The translations under genes and the position numbers were made by a program. Under the pieces are notes generated by a model, which worked only from the letters and a program-made list of their open reading frames with translations, made no database searches and was not told the DNA's origin. DNA of 61,951 nt, counting the filler, from Basidiobolus ranarum (Eukaryota), in the NCBI GenBank assembly GCA_040143965.1. It is 10 parts of 10 records of this genome, joined end to end, with 100 filler letters (N's around TTAATTAATTAA, not from the genome) between each part and the next. Parts side by side here need not be neighbours in the genome. Positions count along the whole stretch, not along the records: positions 49,670 to 55,761 come from JASJQH010001412.1; 9 more parts are not named here. One strand, written 5' to 3'. Below are positions 47,686 through 55,947 of this stretch, one piece after another (the stretch's first letter is position 1; each line of letters opens with the position of its first letter).

Positions 47686-48669
47686 ATGTATTTTAGAATT
47701 CTGGCTGGTAATTGTACTAAGAAGTCTTTAAGTACAGGACTATTGAATGTAAATCCAAATATTTCTATTTAATTTGTGAGAAATATGGACTAATGTCATT
47801 TACTTGTTTTAGAGATTTGGCGCTACTCAATACCACGGTATCAAAACTGCTGTAAACGCTGTGAAAAAAGGCCAAACTATCGAGTTTAGAAATGGCTTAT
47901 GGGTAGTGAATGGAAAGGAGCACGGTGTCATGGGTCGTGGCAGTGCTTTAGTTAAGGTATGTTGTCAAGAATAAGCAACATATTGACAGTCGAACTGATC
48001 CTTTTGTTCACAGCTGGAGCTTCGTAACACCACTAACGGAGCTAAATGTGTAGAACGTTTCCAACCTAGTGATTCAGTTGAAGGTAGCTTCATATATAAT
48101 AGACTGACTATATACGTTATTATTTACTAAATTTCACTTGCTATGCTATAGTCAAGCAAGCTCATTTGGAACAGTATCAATATCTATACACTTCCGATGA
48201 TAGAGTCTATCTTCTTCACCAGGATACTTTCGAAGAGCTTGAGTTAGATAAAAGTGCCCTAGAAGGTTAATTTATAACTTTTCTTACAATCTTTCATGAT
48301 AGTTGATATTGATATTTCATTTACTTTCGCATAATCAGGTGGTGACAAAGTTTTCCCAATGTTAGAGGGTAATTTTATATATCTAAAGTTTATCGTATTT
48401 TCTGACTATGTCTAATCGATTGCCAATTAGACAATATGATTGTTACAGTCCAATTCATAGAATCAGCTGGCCCTGTTGCTTTCCGTCTTCCCGCTCAACA
48501 CGTCTATACCATTGAGTCTTGTACTGATGTTGTAGGCCATTCAAAAGGTGCCACTTATAAGCCTGCTACATTGACTAACGGTTGTCGCGTCTCAATTCCC
48601 GACTTTGTTAAGGCAGGTGATAGAATTTTAGTAGATACTGCTGAAATGAAGTACCTTAACAGGGCCTAG
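47686..48669 (+). CDS. efp: Bacterial-type translation elongation factor P, nuclear-encoded and probably mitochondrial, 6 exons
   Basis: Spliced MYFRILAGNCTKKSLSTGLLN|RFG...VKKGQTIEF..GLWVV..EHGVMGRGSALVK|LELRN..NG...ERF..SDSVE|..YQYLY....L....TFEE...YKPATLTNG..VSIPDFVKAGDRILVDT...Y..RA* covers all three EF-P domains. Confidence 0.9.
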
Positions 48670-49569: not shown

Positions 49570-49669
49570 NNNNNNNNNNNNNNNNNNNNNNNNNNNNNNN
49601 NNNNNNNNNNNNNTTAATTAATTAANNNNNNNNNNNNNNNNNNNNNNNNNNNNNNNNNNNNNNNNNNNN

Positions 49670-52071
49670 GCGGTCTAAATGGCTTACTGACCGGAGTTGA
49701 ACTCGATGAATCGTTTACTTCACGCTTGCCAAATCCATTCGGATTAGGAATCGTACCTGGACCTAACACAGCAAGCAAGTCAGGTGCACTATTATTATTG
49801 ATTGCCATATTTCTGAACGGCTTGTTGACATTTCGCTTCTCACCTACTGCGCCTGAAGAAGGAGTAAAACCACCAGTAAATCCCGAGAACAATGATTGTG
49901 GTTGAGAGACGGTGGTCGAAGGATATACAGTGGTTGGAACTGGAGCGGTAGGTATTTCACTCAGCGAAGAGAAAAAACTTCCACTACCCACTGTAGAATA
50001 ATTGACTGGAGTAATACTGGTATTCGTAGGGTGATGATTCTCATTAGGACCAGATAGAGAAAATTCAGGTAAAGTTTCGCCACTAGTAGGGCCAAACAAC
50101 CGATACCCACCAGTATAGGCGTTATCGAGACGGCCCAATCTTCGAGCCTTGTTCAATTCCTCCATAATAGACCACTTTTCGTGATCTAGTCGTTGCAATT
50201 TCTCTTTGATATTTCGTTCAAGATCTTGAAGCTGCAGATAATTCTGAAAAAGAGCCCTGTGTTCTTGGTCCAGAGATTTCGTCTGATTTCTTAACTTATT
50301 GTCAGGCTCGGCAATCCTTTCGTTTTCATTCAAAATTCTCTGAAACTCATCTTTTTTGTCAGCTATTTCATTCCATAACTCTTCTTTCGTCATCGTAACA
50401 TTCGAAAGCTCCTTTTCAGCAAATGAAATATCATTATGAAGCTTTTTAATCGACTCTTCTAACTCGGCTTTTTGATTGTTAAATTCAACCTTAGCTTTTC
50501 GAATTTTATCTTTGGCAGTTTCTAATGAGTTTTTATGGCTTTCCTTTTCCTTTTCTTTATTACGAAGAGCATCGAAAGAATGTTGTTTAGCATTCTGTTC
50601 AAGTTTCAACTCTCGTTCTAACTTCGTACGTGCGGCCTCTGCTTCAATTTTAGAATCATCCAGCGATTTGAGTCGACTTTTTAATTTCATTTTAGGTTCC
50701 TCTTCGGCTCTTTTAAGTGCACGAAGACGTTCCAATTCGTTCCGTATCTTCTCCTCTTCGTTCTTGGATTGTTTCTCTACTTCCTGGGCATTTTGTGCTA
50801 TTTCTTGACGCTGTTTCTTAACAATATCGCATTCGCTCCGCAATGCATCTATTTTTTCCTCAGTAATCGCCATTTGGGAAGTATCTTCTTTTTTCGTATC
50901 ATTCTTAGTATTGAGTGTAGAATCAAAGGATTCTACAGGTTTCGATAGGGTCTCTTTTTTTACTATAATGGTAAGTAAAAAAGTTAATACTTGAAGTAGA
51001 TATCCATTCATCAAATCAAGGGAAGGAGTGTACCTTTATTAGGTGCAGGGAATGAGACCGGAACGATGGGTAGCGTTTTGATAACGATACATTGTGAAGG
51101 GGTTCGTATACGAGAATTCGAAACTGCCCATACGCGAATTTTATACCAAGAATCTGCAGAAAGACCCATGATTTCCACTGAAGTTTCTTGTTTATCCGAC
51201 TCTCCTGCCAATACACCATTAATTTCAATAAGGTATTTCTCTACAGATGGTTTTTCGGGAAGTGTCCAATATATACTCGTTCCAGTTTCTTTTATATTTT
51301 TTATATATATCACTGGCGGCTTGGGAATCACTAATCCGAAGAAGAGGCCAACTTTGTCAAACGATGAATGAACGAAAAATGCAAAATGATATAATATCCA
51401 TAGGAACCCAAAAGAAGTACAATGAGCTGCTACAGGCGCCATAAACTCCGGAGGTAGCGTATTACACCATGGTAACCAATATCTAGCTGCTGAAAGTATC
51501 GACACTAACATCCAGCCAACGATATCTAATCCGTGAAAGCCGTGGACCAAGGAAGCATTGACTACTGACGAAGCTAAGAAGTTGGTGACTCGATATGAGA
51601 CTAACAAGTAGGTCAACGCACTTGTTGTAAGTATTAAAGTGAAAAATACAATGAACACCGCTATACTGATGGAGAAAGCGTTGAAAAAAATTGTAAAAGT
51701 GAAATAAGAAAAGAGCAACCATTCAATAGGGATGTTAAAGCAATAGTCAAGCAAGATCATAATCAGACAAACAAGAATTACACTGAAAGCGCGGTGACTG
51801 TTAATAAAAATTGGAAGTTAGATACCCGTAAATAGCAAGGCGATAAGCGTCAGAAAGTCGAATAACACAACAACGTCATAAATGTCCAACCACAGAGAAA
51901 ATTTCAAAGTACAAAACGAGAGTTAGCGAAGGATATTTTAGAGATAAAAATAACACGAAAATACCGGTCCAATGAAGCCGCAAGACGGTCGATGAAATTG
52001 GCATCTTTTATAAATGGAGAAGAACCAGGTCTCCGCCAAGTAGTTCTCGAGGTGAGATCATCAGTATCCAT
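49670..52071 (-). CDS. Multi-pass membrane protein: macoilin-like TM region + FN3 domain + long coiled coil + low-complexity tail (3'-truncated)
   Basis: Three exons (starts MDTDDL..; introns ~51964-51800 and ~51034-50965). Hydrophobic block ending PVAAHCTSFG; FN3 IYWTLP..YLIEING....L....WYKIRVWAVS; ~240 aa coiled coil. Confidence 0.85.
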
Positions 52072-53784
52072 TCAAGTTTATCAAAAACAACTGGTTGATG
52101 TAAGCTCAAGTAATTTAAAACGGTAACAGTGAATGGAGGTAGAAAATAGTAAACGAAAACCAATATACAAAATGAATAGAGTAAGTGTAGAGTTTTGAAA
52201 GGCAAAAAACGTACAGAAACTAGCCCAACAAATTTCACCACACGTTCACCTCTGGAAATAAATCTGTGGATAACCCCTCGATGTAAAAGTAAACTCATAT
52301 CTTACCCATCTGTGGAAGTAATGCTCATAACTCTACCATCCAATCCGATGTTGAGACGGAAAACATCGAAAACCACTGAATACCATACCATTCTGATGAA
52401 GATAAATATCGCCAATTCCAATTGCAGACCTCCGATGCTCAAAGCGTTTAACCTCAACGGCATTTCCTCGCTCTCCGTAATGACGTACAAAAGCGTACTG
52501 TTACACTGGCTATACGAAATATGATTTATCGCCTTTTTAGCCAATCTTGCTATGTTGCTTCCATACACAGGTCATGAAGCACATTATAATCATTGTCTTA
52601 TCTGAATCTAGATCAGACACTTAGAGCAAGAGGACGCTCGCATTTATATGTATCAACTACAAATTAAGATTTTTTCAAAAAAGGGCATAATCCTCATGAC
52701 TGGCAAATACATCTGTCATACCACATATTAGCCTTGCCTTGATACCATGCTTAGCTCTGAGGATAATATGTATTGTTGTCTCAATTCCATATACAATTGT
52801 TGTACTAGAGCTGAATTAAGGGGTACAACTGGATTTAAAGAGACTATACCTGCATTGACAGAGAAGCTAAGGGGATGAATAAAATTTTCGGTATTTTGGA
52901 TTACTACATGAAAATTGTGGATTTCGAATATATGCCAATCCATCGTTAGCAACTGCGGCTGTTTACTATGAAAATGTTTCTCCTTCACTAGACAAGTCAG
53001 GATGAGGTCAATAGACCCATTCTTTGTTACCTGGCTGAGCAACTAAAGCATATATATATAAAATAACATGTTTGACTGCTTAAACCAGCGTAGGTTCTGA
53101 CCAACTTGAAAAGAATGTGGAATTGGTTTTTGCCTGTTAAAAGGAAGCACTACGTATTTTTTAAGCTGGTTGCGAATCTTGAACATAATTGGATTCAGAC
53201 CATGAAGAATCATTCTCTCTTTGAACATCTCTAAAATTCCGGATCTATAATAAAAAGAAAGTCTAATCTCGCTGAGTGGACCTGCAAGAAGCAGTGATGG
53301 ATCTTGTCAATGTTGTAATAGATTCCCATCACGATAAGGTGTCTTGGAACTTGCTATACCTCTCATCTCTTTGCTAATTTCTCTCTACTTTGTTGGTAAA
53401 GATTTACGATAGCAATAGAATTAGTGCCTTTAATGTTATGCATACATATATAAATTTCATCGATTCTTTGGATATTTTTGATTGTCATTCGTATCACTGC
53501 TACTATAATTGTTAAAGAACACTTATTGGTACATTGAGCATATACAGTTAATGATACTTTAACTTTACTTAAATGGTATAGTTTCGTCAGAACCATTGGG
53601 TCTTTTGGATGATATAATTGAATTACAAGCTAGCTCCTTCAGGCTAGGGGGTAATTAGAACTTGGTTCAGAATATTGAATAAATTGGAATTGAGCAGACT
53701 CAGGCTGGAGTCGAATATTTAATATATTATATATAGTATCATTTTGCAATATAAAAACTAAGCGAGCACAATAATTTCTTATGA

Positions 53785-55607
53785 TTAGCTCATAAACCCC
53801 TTGAAATATTCATCAATTTGGCTTGTGTTTTGAAGGTAAACGGCAAGTCTCAAGTAACCATTGGGACGAATAATTAAAGCCACTGGGTCATTGTTGGTAA
53901 ATCCAAACTTAATTTTTACGTCATCGAAAGTCACATTAAAAATGTTTTCTGGTCCGAAATTTTCCTTCAAAATAGAAACTGTGGTTTTGTCGGCATTGTT
54001 TGTTTCGTCAGTAATAACTAAAGGCTCAATAAATGAAGTAGCACCATCGTAGGTGCTCCGGAGTTGTGCTATCATGGATACCAGTGTTTGTGTTGCATCC
54101 ATGGATGTACTATTTAGTGGCACCCACAAGAGGAGGTGGAAGGTGGTAGGTTTGGAAAAGAAATCGTATAAACTTTTAGTCTCCAAGCCATGAACTGTGA
54201 TATCAGGGACACGACGGCCAGATTTAATACATGTGGGTCCTCGGCTTATCCAACCTCCATGAGGAATAGTGAGTGGACCTGAAGGATATTCAGTAGTAAA
54301 CCCAACCAGTTTCTGAGTTGCTATTTCTCTGGCAAATGGAATAGAACCCACGACATACACCAATTGACTCCTAATAGACGATAAAAATGATACATTACTC
54401 AAGAAGGTTCGAAGTAATGCTCCACTTGCATTAAGTACACCGGATGCAATAGGACCTCTTTCTTCAGTGTAACTAGAAATCAGGGTGGATCTCCTCCCGT
54501 GATGATGTTCAATTACTCCAAGCTTCCATGCCAAATTATAGCCATCCTGAATTCCTGTATTCATTCCTTGTCCACCAGCTGGACTGTGAATATGAGCGGC
54601 ATCGCCACATAGGAATATCCTTCCTTGACCATAATCTTTAACTTTGCGTTCATTCACTTGGAAATCGGTGAACCATATAACCTTCTTTACATCGAATTTA
54701 AACGGTGAAATAAGATCTTTTGCTAATTTGATGTATGCCTCTTCAGTAAGGTTGACATCTAGTACATCAGTACTTTCCGAATCGACGAAAACCTGGTAAG
54801 TGTTCTCACCCATTGGTATTAACAACAGGGAATTCGGCCCATTCCAAATCATGCTAACAATACAACACGATTAACAAAGAAAAGGATTTTGAAATATGAT
54901 GCTGTACATACTTGAAGTCATGGCAGGAAGGAAGGTCTGTATCTATCTCAACATCCATGAAATACCATTTGTTCTTGATTGACAGCCCTTCAAACTGAGC
55001 GCCTAGCTTCTTCCTTACAGTGCTGTGAGCACCGTCGCAGCCAATCAGATATTTGATCTCAATGGTTTCTTCTTTTTCCTTTCCATCATCACCACGTCTG
55101 GTAACTTTTACCATGACTTTATCTTCAGAATTCTCAAAGTCTATTAACTCAGTGTTTCTTTCAATACTTATTCCGTGAGTAATAGCCAGGTGATTGCTAA
55201 GTATTTTTTCAGTTCTGACTTGAGGCAATGAGAAAATCGCAGCACAGGGTGTATCCAATTGATCTAAAGAAAGTTGAGCGATGGACTTTCCTTCGCTGTG
55301 AAAGTTCAATCTATGGACGTGGAAAGATTTCTCCAGAAACTCGTCAACAACGCCTAAATTACGAAAGACCTCCATAGTCCGAGCGTGGACAGCCAACGCT
55401 CTCGATTCTTTGACATGGCTTGAATTTTCATCTAGTTTAAAGCAAAAGTGTAAAGAAGCTGCCTCGAAGAAGTAGATCAAATGCCCCCTGGCTATGGAGA
55501 CTACCTATTATTCTAACATCAAAGCCCACTTGAGCAAAGGATATAGCACTGGCCAAGCCAACAGGACCGCCGCCGATTACTAAGATTTCAGTCTTTGAGT
55601 GGCTCAT
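53785..55607 (-). CDS. FAD-dependent aromatic monooxygenase (FAD_binding_3, phenol-hydroxylase-like), 3 exons
   Basis: VIGGGPVGL, SRALAVHARTME, LIGCDGAHS.VRK, GDAAHIHSPAGGQGMNTGIQD..NLAWKL, IIRPNGY. Confidence 0.94.
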
Positions 55608-55947
55608 ATTTCGAAGATTGTGTTTGAGAAGCAGATGAGCAACCTCTATATACAGTCGGGGTTAGTAATGTTTCGTCCAAAAATTGCAAAAAAAAGCACA
55701 ATAAACACTCACTTTTCATGTTCAACTTACTCATGAACAACATGGACTAACTTCCTAGAATNNNNNNNNNNNNNNNNNNNNNNNNNNNNNNNNNNNNNNN
55801 NNNNNTTAATTAATTAANNNNNNNNNNNNNNNNNNNNNNNNNNNNNNNNNNNNNNNNNNNNATGAAAGAGGCTTGATTAGATTAAAATTCCCCACAAAAA
55901 CCATCATATATCGAAGACACATGGAAGTGAGTTTGAGGTGGTTGAAA

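Follow-up and report, generated by a model that had tools for sequence, protein, structure and literature searches.

A Basidiobolus ranarum gene for a membrane-anchored FN3 and coiled-coil protein, and its probable remote relationship to animal macoilin

The locus and the gene model

The window analysed here, by which we mean the whole 61,951-nucleotide stretch of DNA from the early-diverging fungus Basidiobolus ranarum (assembly GCA_040143965.1), consists of ten separate contigs, each about 6.1 kb long, chained through TTAATTAATTAA-bearing linkers, and the piece at 49670-55761 (JASJQH010001412.1) carries the gene that is the subject of this study. It is a genuine, intron-bearing gene, and its product combines a compact membrane domain, a single fibronectin type III (FN3) domain and a long coiled coil; the membrane domain and the coiled coil are, we believe, probably remote homologues of those in macoilin, a protein family so far studied only in animals. 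Nine linkers of the form N44-TTAATTAATTAA-N44 fall within 6123-55861, about one per 6.2 kb, and because the pieces are chained in this way, adjoining pieces are not neighbours in the genome and genes at the ends of pieces are cut.

The gene runs on the minus strand from 52071 to 49670 in three exons, and its spliced product comprises 721 residues, with the C-terminal end missing. Exon 1 (52071-51965) supplies the start codon and a basic N-terminal tail, encoding residues 1-35 and two nucleotides of codon 36. It is followed by intron 1 (51964-51798; 167 nt, GT..AG), by exon 2 (51797-51034), which encodes the membrane domain and the FN3 domain, by intron 2 (51033-50963; 71 nt, GT..AG), and by exon 3 (50962-49670), which encodes a linker, the coiled coil and a low-complexity tail and has no stop codon. 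The frame of exon 3 runs open to the end of the contig, where it meets an assembly linker (N44-TTAATTAATTAA-N44, 49570-49669, without strand), a non-biological join between two contigs. Two complete relatives, P0002 (828 amino acids, aa) and P0151 (852 aa), extend some 110-130 residues beyond the end of the model.

Database proteins support the gene model. The translation of exon 2 is 100% identical to residues 1-242 of P0001, named in the database 'hypothetical protein K7432_013743, partial [Basidiobolus ranarum]', and the two share the exon 2/3 junction. Exon 1 is backed by the N-termini of P0002 and P0151, both of which align from residue 1; in these relatives the N-terminal segment is joined straight onto the segment beginning RHRA, and removal of intron 1 restores precisely this RHRA junction. 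A hydrophobic open frame within intron 1, considered as an additional membrane-helix exon, was rejected as non-coding because no splice combination preserves the frame and because the relatives fuse exon 1 directly to RHRA. A HMMER search with exon 2 against 1.84 billion representatives returned 220 database proteins at E<=0.001, of which 29 reach E<=1e-30, so the gene is more than a chance reading.

Domain anatomy of the protein

At the N-terminus of the protein is a basic tail (residues 1-36 of the model), after which come a membrane domain of six helices, a single FN3 domain, about 255 residues of coiled coil and, last, a tail of low complexity. The peptides on which the initial annotation of this locus was based are all present in a minus-strand open reading frame (ORF) at 51011-51760, in the order it had described: a hydrophobic region, FN3, and a long, charged helical region.

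The membrane domain occupies 51320..51796 on the minus strand (model residues 37-195). An AlphaFold2 model of it (m38dc21e8d366), built with a 44-sequence alignment, places helices at 2-20, 24-43, 45-65, 68-87, 92-113 and 116-152, and the mean predicted local distance difference test score (pLDDT) is 91.4 for the membrane domain alone and 93.1 for the membrane domain and FN3 together. The FN3 domain (51077..51313, minus strand; model residues ~198-276) matches Pfam fn3 (PF00041) with an E-value of 3e-6 and 27.8 bits, and so passes the gathering threshold of 25. AlphaFold2 predicts it as a beta-strand domain with the beta-sandwich fold expected of an FN3 domain; its eight DSSP strand elements run from E162 to E240, and block pLDDT values are 90-98 over residues 161-250. 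It is present here in a single copy between the membrane domain and the coiled coil, where topology reasoning predicts a cytosolic position, and not in an extracellular array.

The coiled-coil region (50109..50873, minus strand; model residues 321-575) was called from composition and periodicity: E, K, R, D and Q make up 49.8% of it, P and G only 0.8% each, a stretch of 129 residues is free of both P and G, and its hydrophobic periodicity is 3.5 residues. The predicted complex of two copies of residues 318-575 scored 0.00, a value that speaks neither for nor against self-association. What is left of the truncated C-terminal tail (49670..50108, minus strand) is 13% P, 10.3% G and 25.3% S and T combined.

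A fungal family with a fixed architecture

The gene belongs to a fungal family in which a transmembrane domain, FN3 and a coiled coil are combined in a fixed architecture. Full-length relatives match exon 2 with E-values spanning 1e-110 to 1e-30, among them P0002 from Basidiobolus meristosporus (4.1e-110) and P0004 from Borealophlyctis (4.8e-50), and BLASTP alignments of the 721-residue model cover 1-712 of P0002 and 45-565 of P0004. In these two proteins, as in P0151 from B. ranarum and P0006 from Polychytrium, the membrane domain, FN3 and the coiled coil are all as in the protein studied here. The named members come from Basidiobolus and from eight chytrid genera, namely Borealophlyctis, Phlyctochytrium, Polychytrium, Cladochytrium, Dinochytrium, Spizellomyces, Zopfochytrium and Nowakowskiella. 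In their sources they are named only as hypothetical or FN3-containing proteins, and their precomputed Pfam assignment is either PF00041 or nothing. The family provides a first annotation for widespread fungal 'FN3 domain-containing' hypothetical proteins.

Altogether 132 stored proteins match the 721-residue model by BLASTP, and they fall into distinct classes. The match reaches the first three membrane helices in 54 of them and, in 42 of that group, also extends into the coiled coil; in another 54 it begins only at the last membrane helix or FN3 and continues into the coiled coil, with a short N-terminus in 53; the remaining 24 are FN3-only matches or fragments. These classes indicate that the family has both long-anchor and short-anchor forms, in the latter of which nothing of the anchor but its last helix precedes FN3 and the coiled coil, and they bear out the connection to other fungal FN3/coiled-coil membrane proteins that the initial annotation had anticipated.

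The membrane domain has a number of conserved positions, counted here with the H of RHRA as position 1, so that model residue numbers are higher by 36. They include the RHRA lead-in, W10, P-x-E-W at 23-26, F48 and P67 and, further on, L-V-x-G-x-H-G at 83-89, G-W at 94-95, R105, P-W at 109-110 and P-x-A-A-x-C at 121-126. Across 44 fungal sequences this last motif, read as P-x-A-A-H-C, has P in 38, the two A in 43 and 42, H in 27 and C in 42. The protein studied here has P-V-A-A-H-C at this site; its residues at positions 10, 59 and 67 are C, S and S, in contrast to the W, D and P of all macoilins and of most family members. Compared with its fungal relatives it is a truncated paralogue; P0151, a complete paralogue from the same species, is 80% identical to it in the membrane domain. 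These substitutions, together with the existence of a complete paralogue, suggest that the copy in the window may be diverging.

One family member, P0012 (Nowakowskiella sp., 539 aa, partial), has a VPS13_N match (E 1.2e-28) after its FN3 domain; it is encoded on a contig of 2444 bases, and the combination may be either a merged gene model or a real fusion.

Comparison with macoilin

Macoilin (MACO1/TMEM57; C. elegans MACO-1; PF09726) is a conserved protein of the endoplasmic reticulum (ER) that is mechanistically poorly understood and is required for normal neuronal function in C. elegans (PMC3789837, PMC3093358). According to PMC3093358, C. elegans MACO-1 resides in the rough ER, has a role in neuronal excitability and depends on its membrane part as well as on its coiled coil. 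The fungal protein resembles it in having a basic N-terminal tail, a compact multi-helix membrane domain and a long C-terminal coiled coil in the same order. It differs at the spot where the fungal protein carries FN3, for macoilin has a low-complexity linker there and no globular domain.

To obtain macoilin sequences for comparison, a metagenome collection was searched for a short macoilin motif, written as a degenerate DNA pattern, and every member of the resulting set therefore carries that motif. The scan returned 54 environmental loci, 39 of them with ORFs of 580-944 residues in which the motif lies 70-307 residues from the ORF start, as expected for transcript contigs. Pfam PF09726 confirmed all 22 scanned ORFs (E 7.6e-54 to 1.8e-254, 184-847 bits), and the membrane domains of the set, which probably all come from animals, are 65-87% identical among themselves. 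The macoilin fragments given in the initial annotation agree closely with these fetched sequences, and fn3 was found at E<=0.001 in none of the 22 ORFs, in line with its description of macoilin as lacking FN3. In two of the loci, L005 and L025, the conserved G-L-A-F-S segment of the membrane domain is interrupted by a 12-residue insertion, which could come from an alternative exon or from an intron left unspliced.

The membrane domains of the two families can be aligned from end to end. In hhalign, six fungal and 16 macoilin membrane domains aligned with a probability of 92.75, a P value of 4.1e-7 and a score of 48 over 124 columns, collinear from the first helix to the last, as the motif order noted at the outset had led one to expect. 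When the real pair was repeated locally the score was 45.4, as against 17.4 and 17.5 (12-13 columns) with one side reversed, 30.7 (134 columns) with both sides reversed, and a mean of 13.8 (standard deviation 2.6, maximum 20.3) over 100 column shuffles. A larger comparison of 44 fungal with 28 distinct macoilin sequences scored 41.4 (probability 87.8, 131 columns); with default columns the same set scored 44.0 over 82 columns, which cover the first four helices only and leave the shared motif outside.

Scoring with profile hidden Markov models (HMMs) leads in the same direction. Against the fungal membrane HMM, the median score of the 28 macoilins was 28.8 bits (range 12.6-36.7; best P 2.1e-13), and the scores of decoys reached at most 1.4 bits for reversed macoilins, 5.5 bits for fully shuffled ones, and 16.3 bits for 2016 decoys shuffled within 10-residue windows, a procedure that preserves the pattern of hydrophobic blocks. 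Thus the profile match rises clearly above controls that retain hydrophobicity, and the likeness to macoilin proposed in the initial annotation is supported as going beyond generic hydrophobic character. With the shared P-x-A-A-H-C region removed, macoilins still scored up to 26.7 bits (median 18.1), and with Basidiobolus left out of the fungal profile they scored 15.4-33.5 bits. In the reverse direction, a macoilin-only HMM gave chytrid members up to 25.5 bits, with decoys at no more than 15.0.

At the level of individual residues, the fungal and macoilin membrane domains are about 20-23% identical. The fungal membrane domain has 44 positions with conservation of >=60%, and at 16 of them the hhalign alignment shows the residue that macoilin also conserves; W, E, P, G, W, R and those of P-x-A-A-H-C are among these. 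In macoilin this last motif is an invariant P-F-A-A-H-C at the start of the last membrane helix, each residue of P-x-A-A-H-C being present in 16 of 16 sequences, and its counterpart here is the P-V-A-A-H-C described above.

The coiled coils provide a second region of similarity. When 37 fungal segments were compared with the post-membrane parts of 39 macoilins, hhalign returned a probability of 96.7, a P value of 3.9e-10 and a score of 82.1 over 204 columns, in an alignment that takes in a closing segment before the tail conserved in both families. Reversed controls scored 42.0 and 45.7 (probability 55-71); after gap trimming the real pair scored 71.0, compared with a mean of 22.3 and a maximum of 44.8 for 40 heptad-block shuffles.

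Searches for other known folds were largely silent on the membrane domain, to which no Pfam family is assigned. In the ESM Atlas the whole exon returned FN3 clusters only, and the membrane domain alone had no usable match; in the PDB, searched by sequence, there were weak FN3 rows only and no match to the membrane profile. With the membrane model as query, Foldseek returned nothing at E<=0.001; among the 48,161 chains compared by VIA-align, the best Z was 4.4. We thus found no solved relative of the membrane fold, a result that does not in itself show the fold to be new. Word-seeded protein searches, whose low sensitivity is plain from the many genuine family members they failed to return, brought up no PF09726-labelled protein, and this negative is at most weak evidence.

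Discussion

Overall, we believe that the locus is best explained as a fungal gene of the transmembrane-FN3-coiled-coil type whose membrane domain and coiled coil are remotely homologous to those of animal macoilin, a reading to which we give a probability of roughly 0.72 (about 0.7-0.75 for remote homology of the fungal family to macoilin over its whole length). The argument is that two regions, in the same order, exceed controls that preserve composition or block structure, and that the fungal family is therefore a remote macoilin homologue. At the same time, the fungal family falls below the threshold of PF09726, whereas macoilins lie well above it, and the fungal proteins carry an additional FN3 domain; for these reasons we class the family as macoilin-related, and not as a member of PF09726.

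Several observations weigh against this conclusion, and some of them speak for an alternative in which the likeness is a profile artefact of hydrophobic helices and a charged coiled coil, and the fungal proteins form a lineage-specific transmembrane-FN3-coiled-coil family unrelated to macoilin. The direct comparison with Pfam Macoilin that the initial annotation had suggested did not come out in its favour: with a gathering threshold of 32 bits, the model has no match at E<=1 in the ORFs of the window, none to the membrane domain in 58 relatives (26 and then 32 scanned), and none at E<=10 in six membrane-only pieces, and the sole Macoilin row among the relatives concerns the coiled coil of P0004 (E 0.0015, 17.7 bits), under the cut-off. 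The membrane domain of the protein studied here scores 8.0 bits against the macoilin-only HMM, at about the 99th percentile of decoys and not significant alone, so that the macoilin link rests on the family profile and not on the single sequence. The hhalign probabilities for the membrane domain are 86-93%, with none above 95%, and when the macoilin columns were shuffled 40 times in 20-column blocks the scores averaged 29.3 and reached 37.0, against 41.4 for the real pair, a narrower margin from which it follows that a few blocks carry much of the signal. In addition, the motif used to pick the macoilin set overlaps the motif shared with fungi, and the set is probably all animal; passages of PMC3146951 report that profile comparisons of membrane proteins yield false positives involving the Macoilin model itself; the ESM Atlas gave no usable match to the membrane domain; and reversed coiled coils still score 42-46. 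Nonetheless, we regard an artefact as unlikely, since controls matched in composition or hydrophobic block pattern score far lower than the real pairs (17 against 45 on reversal, and at most 16.3 bits for the local shuffles against a median of 28.8), the alignment is collinear across six helices, the 16 coinciding positions include E, R and P-x-A-A-H-C, and the signal comes from two separate regions in the same order. A more limited relationship, in which the fungal proteins share nothing but the membrane domain with macoilin and acquired their coiled coil and FN3 separately by domain shuffling, strikes us as slightly less probable still. It draws on the difficulty of separating coiled-coil likeness from generic heptad likeness, as seen in the probabilities of 55-71 for reversed segments and in the one heptad-block shuffle that reached 44.8, but the real coiled-coil scores stand well above all 42 controls, the alignment spans 204 columns, and the conserved closing segment before the tail is part of it.

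A general outline of how the fungal proteins are built into the membrane can be proposed. The basic N-terminal tail and the six helices would leave both ends of the protein in the cytosol, with FN3 at the cytosolic face of the membrane and the coiled coil, which is probably dimeric, projecting from it. If macoilin is taken as a guide, the protein would most likely act as a membrane-anchored coiled-coil scaffold of the ER or nuclear envelope, a proposal we make because MACO-1 lies in the rough ER and cannot do without either its membrane part or its coiled coil. The conserved polar residues within the membrane, E61, R141 and H161/C162 in model numbering, may in turn mark a conserved binding or active site in place of a plain anchor. 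Taken further, this would make the six-helix domain an intramembrane enzyme or a lipid- or ion-binding module that FN3 and the coiled coil regulate or position. The retention from fungi to animals of the in-helix E and R and of the H/C of P-x-A-A-H-C, the D and S found in most members, and a degree of conservation that exceeds the needs of an anchor, with macoilin membrane domains 65-87% identical, would all fit such a module. We nevertheless consider this mechanism doubtful, if somewhat less so than the two alternatives above: neither Foldseek nor VIA-align found a solved enzyme or transporter fold that matches, no Pfam family describes the domain, the H of the motif occurs in only 27 of 44 fungal sequences, and the protein studied here itself lacks the family-conserved W10, D59 and P67.

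Regardless of the specific mechanism, the relationship suggests that macoilin is older than animals, for if the two families share common ancestry, then the forebear that fungi and animals have in common already had a macoilin-like protein. PMC3789837 treats macoilin as a metazoan-specific gene, and a fungal sister family would push its origin back to that common ancestor. In the parts examined of the literature that mentions macoilin together with fungi, we found no description of fungal macoilin homologues; the papers that mention it together with choanoflagellates do not deal with homologues, and within the library searched none mentions it together with fibronectin type III. The link between the fungal family and macoilin may already be recorded in curated orthology databases. 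A bolder version, possible but with the odds somewhat against it, would make macoilin the animal branch of an opisthokont-wide protein whose ancestor had the six-helix domain and the coiled coil, possibly with an FN3 domain that was lost in animals, and whose charged, Cys and His residues within the membrane form a ligand-binding or catalytic site. Were such a site kept from chytrids to animals, it could be studied in tractable fungi. More generally, the fungal family singles out the membrane-domain residues that have persisted since the fungal-animal ancestor, and fungi become open to genetics on this protein family.

Neighbouring genes

Upstream of the macoilin-related gene on the same contig, 53785-55504 on the minus strand encodes a flavin adenine dinucleotide (FAD)-dependent monooxygenase in two frames, which match Pfam FAD_binding_3 (E 9e-34 and 9e-29). 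There is also a weak match to a phenol hydroxylase dimerisation domain, and an intron near 54854-54870 probably separates the two frames. The monooxygenase has no evident link to the macoilin-related gene. On the preceding contig, a short ORF at 48436-48669 on the plus strand matches Pfam Elong-fact-P_C (E 2.1e-14), the C-terminal domain of elongation factor P. This domain is unusual in a fungal nuclear gene, and the ORF may be an exon of an organellar-type factor or may reflect contamination.

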